Below, piece by piece: positions 3,978 to 63,700 of a stretch of 64,000 nucleotides of DNA. Position numbers and translations under genes: made by a program. Origin of the DNA: a virus (Duplodnaviria > Heunggongvirae > Uroviricota > Caudoviricetes). The notes beneath the pieces are model-generated. The model made no database searches. It saw only the letters and a program-made list of their open reading frames with translations, and was not told the origin of the DNA. Each line of letters starts with the position of its first letter. The first letter of the stretch is position 1. Where the stretch lies: IMG/VR virus record IMGVR_UViG_3300009502_000019. One strand, 5' to 3'.

Positions 3978-4493
3978 TTATTTTAGGCAGCACTTTTTGT
4001 GTTTTTTACCAGAACCACATGGACAAAGATCATTACGTCCAACCTTGTAAGCAGGCTTCGAAGCTCTGTCAAAGAGTGTCACCCCGTCAAGATGGTCACA
4101 TTCGTGCTGTAGTATAAAAGCCTCCATGCCGTAAAAGATTGCACGACGGCTCTCACCACTATCAAAGTCAAGCCACGAACATGTGACTTGCATGTACCGG
4201 TCCGTGCTCAAACGGACTCCGGGGAAGCTCAAGCAACCTTCGTTTTCACTAACAGTCGGAAAATGGGTTGCCTCTATCTTCGGATTGACCATGTTGACAA
4301 ATAAGCCGAGCTCCAGTTTCACAACACAAGCCCTAACGTCCAATCCGATTTGATTCGCGGAGAGCCCTACTCCTGGAACAGGGCTCTCCGCTAGTTCGCT
4401 AGATAGCTTTGAAAACACGTCAAGAGACTTACACTCTTCAATAGTGGTCTCCCTACATGGTATTGTAAGCTTCTCGCGATCCTGAACTATCAT
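3978..4493 (-). CDS. def: Peptide deformylase with C-terminal SEC-C zinc motif
   Basis: 171 aa. The three PDF motifs are present: [16 protein letters not shown] and HECDHLDG. C-terminal [13 protein letters not shown] is a SEC-C metal-binding tail. Confidence 0.85.
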
Positions 4494-4497
4494 GGGG

Positions 4498-4947
4498 CTA
4501 CTTACCTGGAGTTTCTTCTGGAAGTTTCGGATATCTCTTCAACGGATCGTCAATGAGAGCTGGAGAGGCATCTGGCGGAAGATCATCCTCAATGAAATCT
4601 TCCATAGTAACGATCTGAGTGGGTGTAAGACGAACGCCAGCGTCAGAGAGCTTGCTTAACGGGAGCTTCCACAGATCGAGCTCAACCTCGTTTGCAAGAA
4701 CGTCTCCATACTCCTTCTCGAACACTTCCATGTTTTCTTTCGTAACCTGCATACCACCGCTCTTCTCGTCAGGAGCACCATACTTGCGGATAAGATCCAT
4801 TCTGACCTTTTCCACGTCTTCCATCTCTGAGGCGATCTTCTTCAAGTTCCTACTAACCGCATACGCCAACTTAATGGGCATCTGTGCTTGCATAATGGCG
4901 ATAAATCCAGACTGCGCCCCCTTAATTGTTCCTAGTTTCACTTTCAT
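4498..4947 (-). CDS. Hypothetical protein with C-terminal PLKRYPKLP motif
   Basis: 149 aa. The C-terminal tail [17 protein letters not shown] matches motifs in the RecA-like and SSB-like proteins. Confidence 0.5.
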
Positions 4948-4960
4948 TTTCTAACCTCCG

Positions 4961-5167
4961 TTATATTTTGTCTGGGATATATTCACCGGCCATATCCCTT
5001 AAGCCGTCAAAACCAAGAAGCAGCCATCTCTGCTCAACGTTCAGCAGGTCAAACCTGTCTTCCTTAACCTTAATGTAATCGAGTATATGCTGAAGCTCCG
5101 CGAGATCACTCGCAATAACCTCTACCTGCTCATCATTAGTGCTGTCGTCAAGAGTAACGATCCACAT
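4961..5167 (-). CDS. Hypothetical acidic small protein
   Basis: 68 aa ORF in an operon-like array. Confidence 0.35.
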   Translation of the reverse strand: MWIVTLDDSTNDEQVEVIASDLAELQHILDYIKVKEDRFDLLNVEQRWLLLGFDGLRDMAGEYIPDKI

Positions 5168-25059: not shown

Positions 25060-25080
25060 TTTATCCCCCTTTTATGTTAG

Positions 25081-25152
25081 TGCACCCACCAGGGCTCGAA
25101 CCTGGAACCAAAGGATTATGAGTCCTCTGCTCTACCATTGAGCTATGGGTGC
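25081..25152 (-). tRNA. tRNA-Met (anticodon CAT), or a lysidine tRNA-Ile
   Basis: Folds by hand: acceptor GCACCCA/TGGGTGC, D-arm GCTC-AATGGTA-GAGC, anticodon stem GAGGA/TCCTT with loop CTCATAA, T-arm CCAGG-TTCGAGC-CCTGG. CCA is not encoded. Confidence 0.8.
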
Positions 25153-34959: not shown

Positions 34960-35465
34960 GTCTGGTAAGGGTCCTTGGCCACGGCTTCATTGAAGGCGAT
35001 AACGGCAGCTTCGAGATCAGCAGATGGGTCCCAGTCTTCGTGAACATCGTCTTCAAGGAACTCATACACGTTAAGGACACGGCGTCGGTTCTGTTTGCAG
35101 AGCACTAGCTGCAGTTCCTCTGGCTCCAACCCTTCATCGTCGCAGTAATCAAGCAGGTCCTGCTCGTCAAAGAAGTAGGTGTCCGTGTCATAGATGGAGA
35201 TTGGCGTCTTGTAGTCCCACTGAATGACCTTAAACTTCTCAAACTTCTCTTGCTTTGATTTCTCTCTGCAGGACTCGCACTTTGTCCACCCCTTTTCCAT
35301 GGTTGCTCCACACTCGCACTTCAAGTGAGTGCATCCGGACCAGCGGGCCATGTGCTCATTGTCTCCCCAAAAGTGACCGTCTTTAGACATCCATCCGGTC
35401 ACAGTTACTTTTTTTGCTGCTTCGTCAGAGCTGTATTCGATCATAACGCCCCCTACTTTATGCAC
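34896..35465 (-). CDS. Hypothetical protein with Cys cluster
   Basis: 189 aa. CTHLKCECG...CESC zinc-binding-like cluster and an acidic middle. Confidence 0.45.
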   Translation of the reverse strand: MHKVGGVMIEYSSDEAAKKVTVTGWMSKDGHFWGDNEHMARWSGCTHLKCECGATMEKGWTKCESCREKSKQEKFEKFKVIQWDYKTPISIYDTDTYFFDEQDLLDYCDDEGLEPEELQLVLCKQNRRRVLNVYEFLEDDVHEDWDPSADLEAAVIAFNEAVAKDPYQTWFATDTRVTLAPKEKEAENT

Positions 35466-36919
35466 CCGAGACGCTTGCGAATGTCTGCAAGTGTGTACTC
35501 GGTTACGATTTTGCCATCTTCAAATACGGTTGTAAGCAGCCCAAGATCCTCTTGTTCTGGCGTGACATCTTCAATCATCGTGAGCTCTCCGGTTGTAGCA
35601 TCTTGATTAACCTGCAAGAGCCCGCGGGCGGACTTCTTGATCCCGCTATCGGTTTTCGGGTCCTTGTAGATAGTCACAGGCTTTCCGTTGATGATGCCCC
35701 AGGTAGCTTTCATGGCAAACCCGAAGGTGTCACGTGTCACAAACTGGTAAGTGTAGCTTCCGATGCCAAACACCATGTTCGTGGACGCAAACCCCTTTCG
35801 TGCAAGACCTTCACAAATGGCTTCGCACCGCTCAAGTGTGATGCTGTCGCCATAGATTACCCCAATGTGCTTGTCGAGTTGCTTGAACCCTTTAGCGTTT
35901 GTGTAGCCGCCAAAGGTGTTCCACAGAAGCTCAACAGTGCCGGCTTTGGCTGCTGGATCATCACTCACAGCGTCGCCACAGATGATCTTCACAGGATCAC
36001 CACTGTCGGGGCGAACCACAAGCCGACCGTTCCGGTTCATAATTACATCTTTTAGAGCCGGAAGGGTCTTCGTGATCACATTCCAGTAGTCCCATGTGTC
36101 AGACACAACAGAGACAATGCCAGTAGGATAGATCTCAGTAAGGAGCCTGCGAAACGTCTCTTCTTCTGACAGAAGACCACCGAGGCACATGACCGAGTGC
36201 TCCGTTGCCGGAACACTGCCACCTACCATCTCCTTGTCAGAGTCAGCGCCGTAATATTCTTCAAGGAAGTCGATCGCTGGGACCGTGTCCGTGCCCGTAA
36301 AGCTAAGCAGATGGCCAGCAGCAGACATTAGGGCTCCCTCAATCCCAAATATTCCTCGCATCGAGAAGTCATGGCCCTGCCAGTTGACAAACTCCGGAAT
36401 GTCAGATGTCCTTGCCGCGTACCCATCCAGCATCTTTCTGTAGGCGTAGGCTGTAGATGCTGAAGTGGTTGGGCCCCACACGATATTACACATGACTGTT
36501 TCCATGAAGTTTGTTAGCCAAAAAAACTTCGGGTGGGTGTTCCGGATCGTTAGGATCGGAATACGCATCGGACACAGAGTTCCTTCTGGAAGAGCTTTGA
36601 GCAGAATAGGAAGGTATCCAAGATCATGAAGCTCCCCAACGTGCTCAATGGGAACAGAGTCTTTTCCAAGAGCATTATCAAGGCGCCGTTTGTACTTGCG
36701 AACAACCTCGTCTTTTGGTTGGTTGAAAAAGTCCTCATTCCACCGCTTAATCAAGTACTCTTTGACAAAATACTGGATTCCAAACACGACCACGTGGTCG
36801 ACCCCAGGCACACGGCTCCCGCGAGGCGTTAGATTGGAGTACACGATCTCAGTTCCTGTCGGGTACTGCCTTCTATGGTCTGTTTTGTAGAAATCCTTGA
36901 GTACAATGGGTGAAATCAT
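35453..36919 (-). CDS. nadV: Nicotinamide phosphoribosyltransferase (NAMPT/NadV)
   Basis: 488 aa, collinear with NAMPT/PBEF family proteins (length and core GIQYF...DSGDP...GVIYGD). Confidence 0.8.
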   Translation of the reverse strand: MISPIVLKDFYKTDHRRQYPTGTEIVYSNLTPRGSRVPGVDHVVVFGIQYFVKEYLIKRWNEDFFNQPKDEVVRKYKRRLDNALGKDSVPIEHVGELHDLGYLPILLKALPEGTLCPMRIPILTIRNTHPKFFWLTNFMETVMCNIVWGPTTSASTAYAYRKMLDGYAARTSDIPEFVNWQGHDFSMRGIFGIEGALMSAAGHLLSFTGTDTVPAIDFLEEYYGADSDKEMVGGSVPATEHSVMCLGGLLSEEETFRRLLTEIYPTGIVSVVSDTWDYWNVITKTLPALKDVIMNRNGRLVVRPDSGDPVKIICGDAVSDDPAAKAGTVELLWNTFGGYTNAKGFKQLDKHIGVIYGDSITLERCEAICEGLARKGFASTNMVFGIGSYTYQFVTRDTFGFAMKATWGIINGKPVTIYKDPKTDSGIKKSARGLLQVNQDATTGELTMIEDVTPEQEDLGLLTTVFEDGKIVTEYTLADIRKRLGCIK

Positions 36920-50877: not shown

Positions 50878-51606
50878 ATGGAGAACTTTCCATTCAGGGC
50901 GCCACTAGTAGTCGGCTACAAGGGCGAGATAGGGTCGTTCATACTGCAAGGGCTTCTAAGGCACATGCCTAAGGCATTAGATATCTATTGTGTAGACAAG
51001 AACGAAAGCCACGACGAGGTGACAGACCGGATTAAGCGTTCCGATGTTATCTTTCTGTGTGTTCCCATCAAAGAGACTGTGCACTGGCTCATACAGTACA
51101 GAGCACTGCTTAAAGGTAAGGTGGTATACGAGCAGACATCTTTAAAGAGCACTGTGTACAAAAACATTAACAAGATATTCGCATACAAGGCGAATTTCGA
51201 GCTCAAGTCCATGCACATTCTCTTTAGGCCGTCCGCAACGCCGAACAAGAGTGACCGAAAGGTCGCTATCATAGATCCTACCAAGTTTGGTCCAGAGGAG
51301 ACGGCGGCTATTGCAGCAATTACTGAATCGGACATACAGTGGATCGTCAACCACGCGATGCATGATCTTATTATGGCCAGGCAGCAGGCCTTAATGCACA
51401 GAGTGCTTCTTACGCTCGATCGTACTGTTGGCAACAACCCTAAGACGTACATAAGCCTTAAAGTCCGTGAGCTGTGCGATAGGATCCTGTCCGGAGACGC
51501 TGGACTATACGAGAGCATTCAGAACAACCACTACCTGCCGAAAGCTCTTAACGAGTTTAAGAGAAATCTCAGGAAGTTTAACATCAAAAACGAGTTCAAA
51601 ACATGA
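50878..51606 (+). CDS. Putative NAD(P)-binding Rossmann-fold dehydrogenase (prephenate-dehydrogenase-like, weak)
   Basis: 242 aa. N-terminal VVGYKGEIGSFILQGL resembles a GxGxxG dinucleotide-binding motif. Confidence 0.35.
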   Translation: MENFPFRAPLVVGYKGEIGSFILQGLLRHMPKALDIYCVDKNESHDEVTDRIKRSDVIFLCVPIKETVHWLIQYRALLKGKVVYEQTSLKSTVYKNINKIFAYKANFELKSMHILFRPSATPNKSDRKVAIIDPTKFGPEETAAIAAITESDIQWIVNHAMHDLIMARQQALMHRVLLTLDRTVGNNPKTYISLKVRELCDRILSGDAGLYESIQNNHYLPKALNEFKRNLRKFNIKNEFKT

Positions 51607-51756
51607 GCCTATCTGACTGTGCACACTGTTGGGAAACACCATGTTGCTGTGGGTATAGCTATAAAGACTGGTCTAAACAACGGCTGGAGGAGCAGATCGA
51701 AATGCTCAAAAGCGTACTTGCGGGAACGAACGTCTACTGCAATAAGAAGGCACAAA

Positions 51757-52218
51757 ATGGCTGATCTGTATTTGCATAGGCTTGTAAGCAATCATAGAAT
51801 CGTTGGATACGAAGCAGCAATTCAGCAGCCGGATGGCACAATTAAATGGATGTATCGGCGCTGCCACCCGAGAAGAGGTGAGCTACCAGGTTTGTTTGAC
51901 TGGAGTTTTGAGGGACTGTCTCATGACACAAAAAATATAGCCGCTGGAGTAATTGATGGTAAATTTCGGGATCAGAAACTACAAATATATGAAGGAGACA
52001 TTTTACAGTGCTACCCAAGCACGCGTGACGAGGGGCTTTATGTAGTGACATCATATGAGTACGCCGACGGGATAGATTCCAGAAGAGGTTTAAAATTTGG
52101 TAAATATGAGTTCACGCCGTGCACGCTGGTAGGAAATATCTACAATAATCTTGATTTCTATAACTCAAAATGCCGCAAAAAAGAGAGAATAAATCCATAT
52201 GTACAAGTTCAAAAATGA
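51757..52218 (+). CDS. YopX-like protein
   Basis: C-terminal LVGNIYNNLDFY resembles the YopX family GNI(Y/H)ENPELL ending. Internal Met start chosen. Confidence 0.45.
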   Translation: MADLYLHRLVSNHRIVGYEAAIQQPDGTIKWMYRRCHPRRGELPGLFDWSFEGLSHDTKNIAAGVIDGKFRDQKLQIYEGDILQCYPSTRDEGLYVVTSYEYADGIDSRRGLKFGKYEFTPCTLVGNIYNNLDFYNSKCRKKERINPYVQVQK

Positions 52219-54358
52219 AGAAATGAAAGTCCCGGCATTCATATGGTCTGCGGAGGGATCGATCGAGGAGTCTGCTCTGTCACAGATCAGCAACCTCTCG
52301 AAGCTCCCATTCGCGTTCCACCACATCGCGATCATGCCGGACTGCCACTCTGGATATGGCATGCCAATCGGTGGCGTGTTGGCCGCGGAGCGTGTGGTTA
52401 TTCCTAACGCGGTTGGTGTGGATATCGGTTGTGTTGACAAAGATACAGAGTTTCTTACTGGTTTTGGATGGAAGAAAATTTCGGAGTACAAGGATGAAAA
52501 AGTAATGGAGTACTGTCCAGATACTGGGGCAGCTAGACTTGTTACGCCTGAGAACTACATAAAGGTGCCGTGCGAAAAATTTATACATTTTAAAACAAAA
52601 TATGGCATTGACCAAATGGTTAGTGAAGATCACAGATGTTTAGTATTCCTTAACGATAGGAAGACCAACTTCTCTAAGTATCAAGTAGACTTGGCTTCTG
52701 AAATACTTCAAAAGCACTTGTCCACAAAAACAGGATACAGGCATAGATTTGTAACAACATTTACTCCGGAATTAATAACACGTGTTAGTCTTACAGACGC
52801 CGAGCTAAGAGTAATGGTAATGTTCTGTGCCGACGGCTACATAGACAGAACTCGGGGGCTACTCAGGGTCAAAAAAGATAGGAAAGTTAAGCGTGCAATA
52901 AAGCTACTGAATGATGCTAATATAAAATATATACAAAGTGTCAATAAGTATGATGGTGTAACTCATATACGATTTTCTCCTCCTATTCTTGAGAAAGGTC
53001 TAAAGCAATTTTGGAATGCTAGTTTTGAGCAGCTTCTTGTAGTAAATGATGAAGTGCTACATTGGGACGGTAACGAGAAAGATCAAGTATTCTTTACTCG
53101 GAATCGGGAAGACGCTGATTTTGTTCAATACGTCTTCTCCTCGTGTGGATTTAGGAGTGTTCTTCGGACAGATATTGGGAGAAGCGGGCTAGATAGTGAA
53201 TTAGACTATCGAGTATTTAGATCAACTAGCACTAAAATAGGAATGAACGGGTACCCAAAAACTAAAATGTCGTATGCTAAAAGTGAAGACGGGTTTAAGT
53301 ATTGCTTTACAGTCCCGTCTGGATTTTTTATCGCAAGAAGAAACGGGAACGTGTTTGCAACAGGAAACTGTGGTATGTGCGCTCTAAAGACTCCGTGGAC
53401 AACTGAGTGGATCACCAAAGAGGTCATTAAGAAGCTCTTTGGAGGCTCGAAGGAGCATCACGGCGGCATCAGAACGGTTGTACCGGTAGGGTTTAGTCAC
53501 CACGGTGAAAAACAGAACGAGCAGCTTATGCCTGAAACGCGATCAATTCGCCAGGCTTTCCTAGTCGACTCAAGTATTGTTGAGCAGGAGTACCAGTCTG
53601 CCTTGAAGCAGATTGGGACGCTCGGCGGTGGGAACCATTTTATCGAAATACAGAAGGATCAGACTGGGTTTATTTGGATCATGATTCACTCGGGAAGTAG
53701 GAACATTGGCTTTAAGGTTGCTAAGCACTACAATGACCTCGCTAAGGAAATGACTGCAAAGTGGTTTTCGTCAGTTCCAAAGGAGTCTGACTTGGCATTT
53801 CTTCCTATAGACAGCACTGAAGGTCAGAAGTACCTACTTGAAATGCAATACTGTGTCGAGTTTGCGCTGGCTAACCGCAAGCTAATGATGGAGCGCATTG
53901 TAAATGTGTTTAACAGCACTCTTGGTGGCAGCATCGACATGAGCGGAATGATAAACATTGCTCACAACTACGCCACTGTCGAAAGCCATTTTGGAAAGAA
54001 CGTTATGGTTCACAGGAAGGGAGCGACTTTAGCCAGAGAAAACACTATCGGCATCATCCCTGGATCTCAGGGCACCAAGAGCTACATCGTCAAGGGTAAA
54101 GGTAATCAAGAGAGCTTTATGTCCTGCTCACACGGCGCCGGCAGGACTATGAGCCGTACCAAGGCTGAGAACACCCTAAACCTTGAGGAAGAGCAGAGGC
54201 GTCTGGACGATCAGGGCATCATTCACGGTATCCGGACAGCAAAGGACCTTGATGAAGCTGCGGGCGCGTACAAGCCGATTGATCAGGTAATGAAGAACCA
54301 GGAAGATCTCGTCGAGATCGTGGTTGAACTGCAGCCTTTAGGGGTCATTAAAGGCTGA
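52199..54358 (+). CDS. rtcB: RtcB RNA ligase interrupted by an intein (precursor)
   Basis: Exteins match RtcB: HHIAIMPDCHSGYGMP..GVDIG|CGM...NHF...HNYA...SHGAGR. Insertion is precisely at the conserved GVDIG-CGM site. Confidence 0.85.
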   Translation: MYKFKNEEMKVPAFIWSAEGSIEESALSQISNLSKLPFAFHHIAIMPDCHSGYGMPIGGVLAAERVVIPNAVGVDIGCVDKDTEFLTGFGWKKISEYKDEKVMEYCPDTGAARLVTPENYIKVPCEKFIHFKTKYGIDQMVSEDHRCLVFLNDRKTNFSKYQVDLASEILQKHLSTKTGYRHRFVTTFTPELITRVSLTDAELRVMVMFCADGYIDRTRGLLRVKKDRKVKRAIKLLNDANIKYIQSVNKYDGVTHIRFSPPILEKGLKQFWNASFEQLLVVNDEVLHWDGNEKDQVFFTRNREDADFVQYVFSSCGFRSVLRTDIGRSGLDSELDYRVFRSTSTKIGMNGYPKTKMSYAKSEDGFKYCFTVPSGFFIARRNGNVFATGNCGMCALKTPWTTEWITKEVIKKLFGGSKEHHGGIRTVVPVGFSHHGEKQNEQLMPETRSIRQAFLVDSSIVEQEYQSALKQIGTLGGGNHFIEIQKDQTGFIWIMIHSGSRNIGFKVAKHYNDLAKEMTAKWFSSVPKESDLAFLPIDSTEGQKYLLEMQYCVEFALANRKLMMERIVNVFNSTLGGSIDMSGMINIAHNYATVESHFGKNVMVHRKGATLARENTIGIIPGSQGTKSYIVKGKGNQESFMSCSHGAGRTMSRTKAENTLNLEEEQRRLDDQGIIHGIRTAKDLDEAAGAYKPIDQVMKNQEDLVEIVVELQPLGVIKG
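52430..53368 (+). mobile_element. Intein (313 aa) with LAGLIDADG-like homing endonuclease domain inside rtcB
   Basis: Begins with Cys (CVDKDTEFLTG) and ends ...VFATGN, followed by the extein Cys (CGM). Internal LTDAELRVMVMFCADGYI resembles a LAGLIDADG motif. Confidence 0.75.
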
Positions 54359-54359
54359 T

Positions 54360-54863
54360 ATGACACAGACTAAAGAATGTTGTTGTTGTAAAAAAATTTT
54401 GGAACTTAGCTGTTTCTGCAAACAGCAGCACGGAAAACTTGGAGTACGTGGGCAGTGCAGAGAGTGCTCAAAGAAATACTCGTACAAATTCAAAAAGGTA
54501 TGCAAGGTTTGCCACAAAAGGTTTACTGGATGTAAGAAGTCTATCTATTGCTCAAAGATTTGCTGTGGAGCAGACTTTAAAAACTACTTGGATCGAAATC
54601 ATAAAGTATCTGTATCCAAGCTCAATGAATTAAATCCACAGTGGAGGGGTGATGATGTTGGTTATGCCTCACTACACGCCTGGGTGAGACGTAAGTTAAA
54701 AAAACCTAGTAGGTGTATATGCTGTCAAAAAGTAAAACCTCGTGATGTCGCAAACATAAGTGGAAAATATAAAAGAGATCTTACTGACTGGGAATGGCTT
54801 TGCCGAAGATGCCATATGGAAACTGACGGAAGAATGATGAACTTAAAAAGGAGCAAAAAATGA
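54360..54863 (+). CDS. HNH endonuclease-like, Cys-rich (probable free-standing homing endonuclease)
   Basis: 167 aa and AT-rich relative to its neighbours. Many CxxC pairs; C-terminal DVANISGKY...WEWLCRRCHMETDG is HNH-like. Confidence 0.5.
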   Translation: MTQTKECCCCKKILELSCFCKQQHGKLGVRGQCRECSKKYSYKFKKVCKVCHKRFTGCKKSIYCSKICCGADFKNYLDRNHKVSVSKLNELNPQWRGDDVGYASLHAWVRRKLKKPSRCICCQKVKPRDVANISGKYKRDLTDWEWLCRRCHMETDGRMMNLKRSKK

Positions 54864-55126
54864 AGATGGTGTGTGCCGAATGTAATTTTGAGCTTAGTAC
54901 CGAGCAAAACGGGATCTTTGTGATCGAAATGGCTGACTTCGGGCCCTACAAGATCTACTCAGCGGACCTGTATAAATGTGCTGGGTGTGGCAAAGAAACT
55001 GTGGCTGGCTTTGCAACTAACCCGTATTCGGAGCACTTCGAAGATGGGTTCCAGAATGTTTTGGAGAGGGTTAAAAGTGGCAGGCATTTCTACAACTACG
55101 GGCGGACCGGGAGATACAAGAAATGA
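54860..55126 (+). CDS. Zinc-ribbon small protein
   Basis: 88 aa with CAECN...CAGCG. Confidence 0.4.
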   Translation: MKMVCAECNFELSTEQNGIFVIEMADFGPYKIYSADLYKCAGCGKETVAGFATNPYSEHFEDGFQNVLERVKSGRHFYNYGRTGRYKK

Positions 55127-55704
55127 GTAATACCGAAAGTAAAACATGTCAAAATTGCTTCTACGCTGACGGTGGAACATGTGGAAACTGCTCTGCACAG
55201 CCGGAAGGAGCAACTACAGAGATTTCCGCTGGGTTTGTCTGCGACAACTGGAAACATCAGTTAGCTAAAGTCATTTTCCTGGATGTAGATGGTGTAATCA
55301 ATTCGCGTAGAACGTGTATAGCGTACGACGGATACCCCTGGGAAGTAGATAAGCAGGGTTTAAAGATGTTTGACCACGTTGCTATAGATCTTATTAGAGT
55401 TGCATGCGAGAAAACTGGGGCCAGGATAATCCTATCCTCTACATGGCGGCGCTCGACAGGGCACGTGAACATGGCAGTAGCAATGCATCTTCCGATGATG
55501 GATTCTACGCCTGAAAAGCTGTCCTCAGCGCGTGGCGAGGAGATCGCTATGTGGCTTCGGGACCACCCAGAAGTGGAGCAATACGCTATTGTAGACGACG
55601 ACAGCGACATGTTAGATGGACAGCTTCCATACTTTGTCAAGGTAGATCCGGATAATGGGCTGTCTTATAAGAACTACCTAAAAATATTGGAGCTGCTCAA
55701 ATGA
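55123..55704 (+). CDS. HAD-family hydrolase with N-terminal Cys cluster (possible polynucleotide 3'-phosphatase or nucleotidase)
   Basis: 193 aa with HAD motif I VIFLDVDGVIN and a C-terminal IVDDDSD. Confidence 0.5.
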   Translation: MSNTESKTCQNCFYADGGTCGNCSAQPEGATTEISAGFVCDNWKHQLAKVIFLDVDGVINSRRTCIAYDGYPWEVDKQGLKMFDHVAIDLIRVACEKTGARIILSSTWRRSTGHVNMAVAMHLPMMDSTPEKLSSARGEEIAMWLRDHPEVEQYAIVDDDSDMLDGQLPYFVKVDPDNGLSYKNYLKILELLK

Positions 55705-55934
55705 AAAAGCAATACTACATCGAGAACATTGAGCGTGGATGTGTTGGAAACTGCCTTCTGTGGTGGGTTAAGGACGGCCACGGGTACCATTGTGATATCC
55801 GTAAAGCCCACAAGTTCTCGTATAAAGAGGCCAGAGAGCTCTGCCGCGGTAGGAAGAAGTATAGGATGTGGGAAGTTTCGTACATTGACGCACACACGAG
55901 GCCACACGTAGACATACAGGGGCTGTTAAAGTGA
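55701..55934 (+). CDS. Hypothetical small protein
   Basis: 77 aa ORF. Confidence 0.4.
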   Translation: MKKQYYIENIERGCVGNCLLWWVKDGHGYHCDIRKAHKFSYKEARELCRGRKKYRMWEVSYIDAHTRPHVDIQGLLK

Positions 55935-62225: not shown

Positions 62226-62311
62226 TGGTGGCCGAGGCGGGACTTGAACCCGCACGTCCTTTCGGACACAAGCCCCTCAAACTTGCGCGGCTGCCATTAC
62301 GCCACTCGGCC
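62226..62311 (-). tRNA. tRNA-Leu (anticodon GAG), class II with long variable arm, CCA encoded
   Basis: Hand fold: acceptor GGCCGAG/CTCGGCC, D-arm GTGGCGTAATGGCAGCCGC, anticodon stem CAAGT/GCTTG with loop TTGAGGG, variable stem-loop GTCCGAAAGGAC, T-arm GCGGG-TTCAAGT-CCCGC, 3' ACCA. Confidence 0.7.
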
Positions 62312-62320
62312 AATAAAATT

Positions 62321-62530
62321 ATGAATCACGTTTTTAAAGCTGCTACTCAAGACGAAGTACGAAAGCGTATATTCGCGTGTGTTGACTGCAACTACTTCTT
62401 AGATAACTTAGGTGGTATACAAAGCGTGTGTTCGAAGTTTTACCCAAGCATATCCATACAACTTACGGATCCGAACAGCTCTGTTCCAAAGTGGTGCCCG
62501 TTAAAAGATGGTGGGCACGGTAGGACTTGA
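62321..62530 (+). CDS. Small protein between tRNA genes (paralog of 61446-61724); 3' end overlaps the tRNA on the opposite strand
   Basis: ATG at 62321. CVDC and Cys/Pro-rich. Confidence 0.3.
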   Translation: MNHVFKAATQDEVRKRIFACVDCNYFLDNLGGIQSVCSKFYPSISIQLTDPNSSVPKWCPLKDGGHGRT

Positions 62531-62592
62531 ACCTACACGTCCGAAGACACAGGCTTCTAAGACCTGCGCGGCTGCCATTACGCCACGTGCCC
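62509..62592 (-). tRNA. tRNA-Leu (anticodon TAG), class II
   Basis: Same D-arm as the other Leu tRNAs. Anticodon stem CAGGT/GCCTG with loop CTTAGAA. T-arm GTAGG-TTCAAGT-CCTAC. CCA encoded. Confidence 0.7.
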
Positions 62593-62670
62593 TTGGTACC
62601 GGATGAGGGAATCGCACCCACACTTTACGGCTTTTAAGACCGTCGCCTCTGCTATTGGGCTAATCCGGCT

Positions 62671-62756
62671 TGGTGCGAGTGGAGGGACTCGAACCCCCAC
62701 ATCCTTTCGGACATCGGCTTTTGAGACCGACGCGGCTGCCATTACGCCACACTCGC
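62671..62756 (-). tRNA. tRNA-Leu (anticodon CAA), class II
   Basis: Anticodon stem TCGGT/GCCGA with loop CTCAAAA; variable arm GTCCGAAAGGAT; CCA encoded. Confidence 0.7.
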
Positions 62757-62761
62757 TTGAT

Positions 62762-62846
62762 TGGTGCGATCGGCAGGACTTGAACCTGCACGGGGTTGAC
62801 CCATAAGCTTCTGAGGCTTACGCGGCTGCCATTACGCCACGATCGC
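62762..62846 (-). tRNA. tRNA-Leu (anticodon CAG), class II
   Basis: Anticodon stem TAAGC/GCTTA with loop CTCAGAA; T-arm GCAGG-TTCAAGT-CCTGC; CCA encoded. Confidence 0.7.
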
Positions 62847-62847
62847 T

Positions 62848-62926
62848 TGGTCTCTCTGGTCAGGGTCGAACTGACATGATATCCTGTTTAGAAGACAGGT
62901 GGACTATCCAATTATCCCACAGAGAG
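62848..62926 (-). tRNA. tRNA-Arg (anticodon TCT)
   Basis: Acceptor CTCTCTG/CAGAGAG. Anticodon stem CCTGT/ACAGG with loop CTTCTAA. T-arm GTCAG-TTCGACC-CTGAC. CCA encoded. Confidence 0.65.
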
Positions 62927-62927
62927 G

Positions 62928-63611
62928 TTAGAACTTCATTCTTCTTCCCGGCATCCATCCTTTTGATAAATATGACATAAAATCTGATTCTGTTACTTTT
63001 ATGGATTTTTTAAGGCCAGGATTGTAAATCCACTTTTTCCCATATTGGGAATTTCCTTTCCCGGACTGTGCTTTTGATACTATTGACCCAATATATTTTT
63101 TATGCTCTTCTGTGTGATGTTTATTTTTGAACCTCATTCCATCTTTTAGGCTAAAAAATCCAGACTTGTTTTTCCGTTGAGTTTCTATACTTTTCTTATG
63201 TGCTGGCTTGCGAAGTTTTTCATTATTAAATCCAATTCCCTTCTCTTTGCACATATTACCAATAGCAACCATCTTCTTTCTTGTTTCTTCTTTATTTGGA
63301 TTATTTGTAAAATAATCTCCACCCTCGCCACCCGGTGTTATGTTGTATCCCTTAGACCAGGTACAGCCTACATCAGCTATCCAAGCTATTTCTAATTCAT
63401 TTAGCTCTGCTTTACTATAAGCACAATCAATGGGTCGTATCTTAAATCTACCTTGACCGTACTTTTTCATAACACGTCTTATTATGACACCACTTGGTTT
63501 GTATTTTGGATCAAACCTACTTCCTTTGTGTTGACCAATGTATCTCATATTGGTCACCAAATCAGTTACCAAGTAAATGTAACCATAACAATTTTCTAAT
63601 ATCCTGTTCAT
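62928..63611 (-). CDS. GIY-YIG homing endonuclease (SegB/I-TevI-like) inserted in the tRNA cluster
   Basis: 227 aa and AT-rich. N-terminal GIY-YIG core YGYIYLVTDLVTNMRYIGQHKG. NUMOD-like HTEEHKKYIGS repeats. Basic DNA-binding C-terminus. Confidence 0.8.
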   Translation of the reverse strand: MNRILENCYGYIYLVTDLVTNMRYIGQHKGSRFDPKYKPSGVIIRRVMKKYGQGRFKIRPIDCAYSKAELNELEIAWIADVGCTWSKGYNITPGGEGGDYFTNNPNKEETRKKMVAIGNMCKEKGIGFNNEKLRKPAHKKSIETQRKNKSGFFSLKDGMRFKNKHHTEEHKKYIGSIVSKAQSGKGNSQYGKKWIYNPGLKKSIKVTESDFMSYLSKGWMPGRRMKF

Positions 63612-63624
63612 ACTTACTCCAGGT

Positions 63625-63700
63625 TGGTACCTCTACTCAGATTCAAACTGAGATGTGTAGTTTCGAAGACTACCGCCTTATTCAATTAGGCCATAGAGGT
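63625..63700 (-). tRNA. tRNA-Arg (anticodon TCG), tentative
   Basis: Acceptor ACCTCTA/TAGAGGT. D-arm GCC-TAATTGAATAA-GGC. Anticodon stem GTAGT/ACTAC with loop CTTCGAA. T-arm CTCAG-TTTGAAT-CTGAG. 3' ACCA. The A1 start and the T-loop are atypical. Confidence 0.5.

Follow-up and report, generated by a model that had tools for sequence, protein, structure and literature searches.

The locus described here raises a simple question: what is the 313-residue segment that divides the RtcB RNA ligase gene of this phage in two? The window, a single stretch of 64,000 nucleotides from IMG/VR record IMGVR_UViG_3300009502_000019 (Caudoviricetes), carries the gene as one open reading frame at 52199..54358, stop codon included, which encodes 719 amino acids and was recognized from the ORF listing and Pfam RtcB. 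The gene, its parts and the ORF that directly follows it lie on the plus strand. Our reading, to which we assign a probability of about 0.9, is that the product is a 3'-phosphate/5'-OH RNA ligase precursor that would be inactive until a 313-aa intein removes itself, that this intein probably moves by homing, and that an HNH-like gene downstream is a separate element.

The precursor matches the Pfam RtcB model in two stretches (E = 9.1e-108). The spliced exteins together form a protein of 406 aa that scores 361.6 bits against PF01139, for which the curated cut-off is 27, and PHROG 1075, "tRNA splicing ligase", also recognizes the protein as RtcB (1.2e-113). An intein-free homolog, P0032, is likewise 406 aa long, and its N-terminus, MYKFKTDEMKVP, confirms the start codon. 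The N-extein (52199..52429, residues 1-77) has GVDIG at its end. The C-extein (53369..54358) contributes 329 aa plus the stop codon, and its first codon, TGT, encodes the Cys+1 residue, as placed by alignment to PDB 1uc2/4dwq. In the alignment to Pyrococcus horikoshii (Pho) RtcB, Cys+1 corresponds to Cys98 and Asp75 to Asp95, the position of His203 is covered as well, and the catalytic motifs GGGNH, MIHSGSR, IAHNY and CSHGAGR are present in the C-extein. Asp95 and Cys98, in Pho numbering, are metal ligands of RtcB, and His203 is its histidine nucleophile. With the exteins joined, all of these residues are in place, and the spliced product should, judging from its sequence, be a complete RtcB. 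Because the insert separates Gly77 from the metal-binding Cys, the ligase active site would form only after the intein has departed.

The window also contains a HAD_SAK_2 phosphatase gene (55123-55704), eight tRNA genes and a large-phage replication module; besides its ligase, the phage carries an array of tRNA genes and a HAD phosphatase of RNA repair. A neighborhood with the phosphatase and the tRNA genes fits a role for RtcB in RNA repair. A megablast search with region 51600-55800 against 50,697 phage records gave no match, so no close cultured relative exists among them at the DNA level.

The insert occupies 52430..53368. Its first codon is TGT for Cys78 (52430-52432) and its last is AAC for Asn390 (53366-53368), followed directly by Cys391; the span from Cys78 to Asn390 makes it exactly 313 aa, numbered Cys1 to Asn313 as an intein. 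The N-terminal splicing region (52430..52645) includes block A, beginning CVDKDTEF, and block B, S65-E-D-H68, with Cys70 at position B:12. The C-terminal splicing region (53291..53368) includes block F, KYC292F, with Cys at F:4, and block G, FAT311-G312-N313. We compared these positions across 171 sampled full-length relatives. Cys1, His68 of block B and Cys292 of block F are each conserved in 171 of 171, position B:7 is Ser, Thr or Cys, Asn313 is found in 170, and the C-terminus reads TGN in 154. The +1 residue is Cys in 98, Ser in 64 and Thr in eight. The penultimate His, common in inteins without being obligatory, is represented by Gly312 in the window intein, and neither this intein nor its family has a His at F:13. 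The intein is compositionally foreign to the RtcB exteins, with a GC content of 38.6% and GC3 of 34% as against 49-53% and 58-66% for the exteins.

The structure model of the insert shows a Hint fold and a LAGLIDADG domain, predicted at high confidence. In the central domain, an alpha-beta-beta-alpha-beta-beta(-alpha) arrangement occurs twice, and the fold matches of this endonuclease domain are PI-PfuI and I-DmoI. The first LAGLIDADG helix is encoded at 52790..52843, LTDAELRVMVMFCADGYI, and spans residues 123-135 in the model, with Asp135 as putative catalytic residue; the second is encoded at 53024..53074, FEQLLVVNDEVLHWDGN, and spans residues 199-213, with Asp213 as its putative counterpart. 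Both helices end in an acidic residue followed by Gly (MFCAD135G and LHWD213G). Asp135 is kept in 167 of the 171 relatives and Asp213 in 165. Curated LAGLIDADG profiles from Pfam and NCBIfam gave no match to the insert up to E = 10, and assignment to the LAGLIDADG family is therefore based on fold and motifs. Used alone as a query, the insert likewise had no meaningful match in Pfam, NCBIfam or PDB phmmer searches; it was identified through PHROGs, homolog searches and predicted structure. A tblastn search of the window found no second copy. PhoH carries a 165-aa mini version of the intein that lacks the central domain, which shows that the center of the intein is a separable module.

These results agree with much of the preliminary description of the locus. 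The positions it gave, with the ORF at 52199-54358, the first Cys at 52430, the last Asn ending at 53368 and a further ORF at 54360-54863, are all correct. It took the RtcB exteins to be intact, as the 406-aa joined product bears out (Pfam RtcB, E 9e-108), and it placed the insertion at the metal-binding segment GVDIG-CGM; by the alignment to Pho RtcB the insert falls exactly before the metal-binding Cys of GVDIG/CGM (the slash marks the junction). Its proposal of a 313-aa intein with a LAGLIDADG-type endonuclease is upheld by the Cys1 to Asn313/Cys+1 boundaries, the two conserved LAGLIDADG motifs and the predicted fold.

In the proposed splicing pathway, Cys1, aided by Ser65 and His68 of block B, would form a thioester at the N-terminal junction. 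The acyl group would then pass to Cys+1, possibly via or assisted by the invariant Cys292 of block F. Cyclization of Asn313 would free the intein, and an S-to-N shift would restore GVDIG-CGM. Since Cys1 is invariant apart from the variant L012 described below, we favor this class 1 pathway and give Cys292 an assisting role. In a class 3 or hybrid route, Cys292 would itself first attack the N-terminal junction, forming the branched intermediate BI-F, and pass the N-extein on to Cys+1, leaving Cys1 dispensable or auxiliary. Two members of the WCT triplet, Cys292 at F:4 and Thr311 at G:5, are present in the window intein, and at the same RtcB site the family member L012, from record IMGVR_UViG_3300028920_000004, has Ala1 (codon GCT) and Met at B:12 in an intact ORF of 719 aa. 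Tori et al. (PMC2807308) had already noted WCT inteins that begin with Ser1 or Cys1, so Cys1 together with class 3-like features is not unprecedented. Class 3 inteins are marked by the lack of a nucleophile at position 1, however, whereas the window intein has Cys1, and the presence of Cys1 in every sampled member argues that it is needed. The Trp of the WCT signature is absent from B:12 in all 171 relatives, a Cys at F:4 is found in some inteins generally (PMC4031507), and the Ala1 variant is a singleton; a search for further Ala1 variants returned L012 itself and no other, and the IMG/VR family scan, whose pattern requires Cys1, cannot reveal such members. On balance the class 3 route is possible but doubtful.

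A broader form of this idea, which we regard as less likely still, is that the block-F Cys serves as an obligate relay, in spite of Cys1, throughout a very large phage-borne clade that apparently has no name yet. The clade would be marked by Cys1, an invariant Cys at F:4 and a Thr-Gly-Asn end, with neither a penultimate His nor a His at F:13, and its insertion points would be mostly the G/[CST]G sites of P-loops together with the RtcB metal site. L012 might then represent a transition from class 1 to class 3 within one lineage and at one site, and the sole characterized relative would be the class 3 AceL NrdHF split intein.

The free-standing ORF that follows (54360..54863, 167 aa) begins 1 nt past the RtcB stop codon. 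It encodes 19 Cys residues, 14 of them within the first 75 positions, and has a GC content of 38.5% (GC3 37.5%) in a window that averages 47.3%. Its C-terminal part is an HNH-like beta-beta-alpha zinc domain, with the core at about 54633-54839, framed by a zinc-binding CxxC...CxxC arrangement. The preliminary description of an AT-rich, Cys-rich, HNH-like ORF thus stands as to composition and fold; a Pfam match is absent, and so is a His at the canonical general-base position. Searches with the protein against Pfam, NCBIfam and PDB sequences gave no match, and a profile of its family found chance-level matches only among PDB sequences. Weak matches came from PHROG endonuclease VII (E 0.007), from a BFVD search, where some of the proteins are annotated as HNH, and from the Pfam HNH profile, which reached eight of 28 homologs with a best E of 0.052. 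NUMOD3 modules occur in 10 of the 28 homologs examined, and 67 homologs have only the C-terminal half in common with the protein. Residues invariant among the 28 family members are H106, C119, C122, N132, D143, C148, C151, H152 and D156. Zn-HNH enzymes normally carry a general-base His between the Cys pairs; none of the 28 members does. Compared with phage GVE2 HNH, Geobacter Gme HNH nickase, McrA and I-HmuI, the last a free-standing homing HNH enzyme, the protein shows modest fold scores and no sequence-profile match. Unlike Zn-HNH nucleases, its family carries an Asn at the expected position of the general-base His, and the invariant His106 lies on a preceding helix. The protein may use H106 instead, or may be no conventional HNH at all.

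Since the HNH assignment comes from this modest fold match, we infer with some reserve that the ORF probably encodes a free-standing homing endonuclease. It would then be a gene separate from the intein, compositionally foreign, and independently acquired, as its low GC3 and the lack of a homolog within 5 kb of 80 other phage RtcB loci suggest. Contigs that encode an identical 167-aa protein reach 202 kb. All 20 contigs that carry it have their genes in the same order, and synteny does not extend to contigs of more distant RtcB relatives. With uniform carriers and no synteny beyond them, gene order could not show the ORF to be an insertion. A promoter and terminator scan gave no excess over shuffled sequence. 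The gene could instead encode an ordinary phage zinc-finger protein that binds DNA or RNA, or an accessory RNA-repair nuclease, possibly inactive as a nuclease, with no part in homing. We regard such a non-homing role as unlikely, though well short of negligible.

Four independent lines identify the insert as an intein and not as part of the ligase: the conserved residues and the predicted fold described above, its absence from orthologs and its presence in unrelated hosts. With the spliced exteins as query, RtcB proteins of about 400 aa are recovered by the thousand; they are colinear with it throughout, at identities of up to 77%. At the position of the insert, the intein-free proteins read GVDIG-CGMCA without a gap, and of about 83 related phage RtcB loci, 78 have the exteins contiguous, a pattern far beyond chance. 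In the comparison with intein-less RtcB alleles, suggested at the outset as a check, the flanks rejoin gaplessly at GVDIG-CGM, and the insert is not a native domain of all homologs. Homologs of the insert alone are flanked by unrelated proteins, among them the Walker A loops of terminases and helicases, PhoH, metallophosphatase, SAM synthetase, methyltransferase and other RtcBs. In all hosts they start C[VL]D..TE and end [TS]GN, with C, S or T following. PHROG profiles of PhoH, RNR and terminase match the insert only through their middle sections. That the insert might be a native or lineage-specific RtcB domain, or a decayed, non-splicing intein remnant kept in the mature protein, draws on the lack of any curated intein or LAGLIDADG profile that recognizes it and on its Gly-Asn rather than His-Asn end, but this reading is very improbable and is already contradicted by the present data, as the insert is missing from nearly all RtcB homologs, splits the Asp75/Cys78 metal site, recurs as the same module in unrelated proteins, is predicted with high confidence to adopt a Hint plus LAGLIDADG fold, and conserves all of its nucleophiles.

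The intein is sporadically distributed, and its relatives are not those of its host gene. The closest inteins, at 40-51% identity, sit in RtcB proteins merely 31-42% identical to that of the window, whereas the closest exteins, at 63-77% identity, carry no intein; such a mismatch is the pattern expected from horizontal homing. In the homing step as we envisage it, the LAGLIDADG domain, inserted in the Hint fold and using Asp135 and Asp213, would cut intein-free rtcB alleles during co-infection. The predicted cut lies at the reconstituted site, at about AACGCGGTTGGTGTGGATATCGGT^TGTGGTATGTGCGCTCTAAAGACT, and repair after cleavage would copy the intein into the intein-free gene. Within the phage lineage of the window the intein looks fixed. 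The 719-aa form occurs in all contigs that carry the neighboring gene, a protein search for an intein-free allele of the same phage gave a best match of 77% identity, and the exact 30-mer of the spliced junction, representing the empty site, had 0 matches in metagenome contigs. The nearest empty site, in P0032, is identical at 45 of 60 nt, with differences mainly at wobble positions. The intein may be fixed and its endonuclease idle. Contigs broken inside the intein were considered as signs of a presence/absence polymorphism and rejected, the break points being scattered within the intein and not at its junctions.

The preliminary description regarded a phage RtcB intein as uncommon and took it to mark the gene as probably essential; neither view is supported. 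The same family occupies the same site in cultured Pseudomonas, Bacillus and Corynebacterium phages and in IMG/VR contigs, and the presence of an intein is no evidence that the RtcB gene is essential. By tblastn with the intein, 133 GenBank phage records match. The best of these lie within the RtcB genes of Pseudomonas phage vB_PaeM_PS119XW (44.7% identity), Corynebacterium phage Lederberg (42%) and Bacillus phages JBP901, BCP8-2 and vB_BtM_BMBsp2 (about 42%). Of the best 80 family loci in IMG/VR, 17, the nine best included, are at the RtcB site. When 1.84 billion cluster representatives were searched with a profile that contained some flanking columns, 16,554 matches reached E<=1e-3 and 3,172 reached E<=1e-30; the best stretches cover the intein. 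The family inserts mostly at P-loops with the pattern G/[CST]GK[ST]. RtcB is itself a recognized intein host, with 27 bacterial and 10 archaeal cases (PMC4760082), and tRNA-splicing ligase is among the intein hosts of actinobacteriophages (bioRxiv 10.1101/2025.01.02.630785).

The intein of the window is accordingly a further example of an abundant and already sampled family. It leaves current concepts as they stand, since both RtcB inteins at the Cys site and phage LAGLIDADG inteins are well documented. Its description corrects the annotation of a 719-aa "RtcB" to a 406-aa ligase plus a 313-aa, presumably mobile, intein, and it points to GenBank phages in which this intein stands unannotated. 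Here a splicing step that uses the metal ligand of a tRNA-repair enzyme as its +1 nucleophile would control how that enzyme matures. To intein specialists, the signature of Cys1 plus Cys at F:4 plus TGN, linked to a class 3 intein, should be useful, and the family offers a compact, abundant natural series for testing the origin of class 3 splicing.

The closest known systems include the RtcB inteins of cultured phages. They are members of one family with the window intein, at 42-45% identity across the full 313 aa, with an identical architecture and a comparable length; by alignment, the junctions GVDIG/C...TGN/CGM are shared as well. Their exteins are only distantly related to the window RtcB, their GenBank records name the gene RtcB or RNA ligase and leave the intein unannotated, and the phage of the window, at about 200 kb, is uncultured. 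The intein of P. horikoshii RtcB (PH1602) and other archaeal or bacterial RtcB inteins have the same insertion point, with the metal-ligand Cys as +1 residue; this is Pho Cys98, which PMC4150793 states to be the splice junction in the archaeal protein. The NCBIfam "intein-containing RtcB" models align to the extein parts of the window protein only, not to the insert. Protein P0098 and locus L058 have an unrelated intein, CF[ST]G...VHN/C, at the same RtcB site. Against the full-length LAGLIDADG inteins TliVMA, PI-PkoII, PI-PfuI and PI-SceI, the window intein shows just 11-18% identity and no Pfam-level match; it is also smaller (313 aa, compared with 366-537 residues in the solved chains) and ends in Gly-Asn. 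The experimentally active AceL NrdHF intein (PDB 6zgq) resembles the window family in lacking both the penultimate His and the His at F:13. Its class 3 splicing is proven, B:12 is Met and position 1 is Ala; it is naturally split, with a separate GIY-YIG gene and NrdHF as its host. The window intein, in contrast, starts with Cys1 and is a single contiguous piece with its LAGLIDADG domain in frame.

The GVDIG|CGM site of RtcB, in which the +1 residue is a metal-ligand Cys, is occupied by inteins of more than one kind. Locus L058 (2505-3380) and protein P0098 have an intein unrelated to that of the window, about 292 aa long and of the form CF[ST]G...VHN|C, inserted exactly at GVDIG|CGM in other phage RtcB genes; its middle part is HNH-like (HHKDGNWFNNDPSNLE). 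The RtcB site is thus a target for two intein families or more.

The LAGLIDADG intein family found in the window includes a member with an altered N-terminus. The 313-aa intein at positions 4062-5000 of IMGVR_UViG_3300028920_000004, likewise at GVDIG|CGM, has Ala (codon GCT) in place of Cys as its first residue. Position 12 of block B is Met, position 4 of block F is Cys, the C-terminal junction reads TGN|C, and the surrounding ORF of 719 aa is intact. Judged from its residues, this N-terminus is of class 3 type, that is, it lacks a nucleophile at position 1, inside a family that otherwise begins with Cys.

The same family occurs in other proteins. P0001 and P0002, about 439 aa each, are labeled "tRNA-splicing ligase RtcB" at their source, and consist of the intein within a small unrelated extein (...TEVG|C...GN|CGIAG); the label appears to have been transferred via intein similarity. 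Some large proteins of 850-1,300 aa (P0219-P0227, P0248 and P0259 among them) carry two or three separate copies.

Six short metagenomic contigs from the same phage as the window start inside the intein. Polymorphism for presence or absence of the intein was rejected as the cause, because the break points (residues 38, 63, 221 and 243-244) are scattered and none falls at a junction; the breaks look instead as if they arose from assembly or from coverage of the low-GC segment.

In the HNH-like family to which the ORF directly downstream of RtcB belongs (core at about 54633-54839, plus strand), Asn132 stands at the expected position of the general-base His, and an invariant His106 lies on the preceding helix. 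An N...D...H pattern framed by CxxC/CxxCH is common to all 28 aligned homologs.

Two genes downstream of RtcB, a protein at 55123-55704 (plus strand) contains a HAD_SAK_2 domain (E = 2.5e-23), the domain of "Swiss Army Knife" RNA-repair HAD phosphatases; this proximity suggests an RNA-repair module. The window has eight tRNA genes (62226-63700 and 25080-25152, minus strand). Five tRNA-Leu genes (gag, tag, taa, caa, cag) are clustered with two for tRNA-Arg (tct, tcg), and the remaining gene is for tRNA-Met. This set is consistent with a large phage carrying its own tRNAs alongside RNA-repair genes.

The window also encodes a nicotinamide phosphoribosyltransferase (35453-36919, minus strand), as does the Pseudomonas jumbo phage PS119XW, whose intein-bearing RtcB adjoins genes for that enzyme and for ribose-phosphate pyrophosphokinase, which may hint at an auxiliary-gene set common to both phages.
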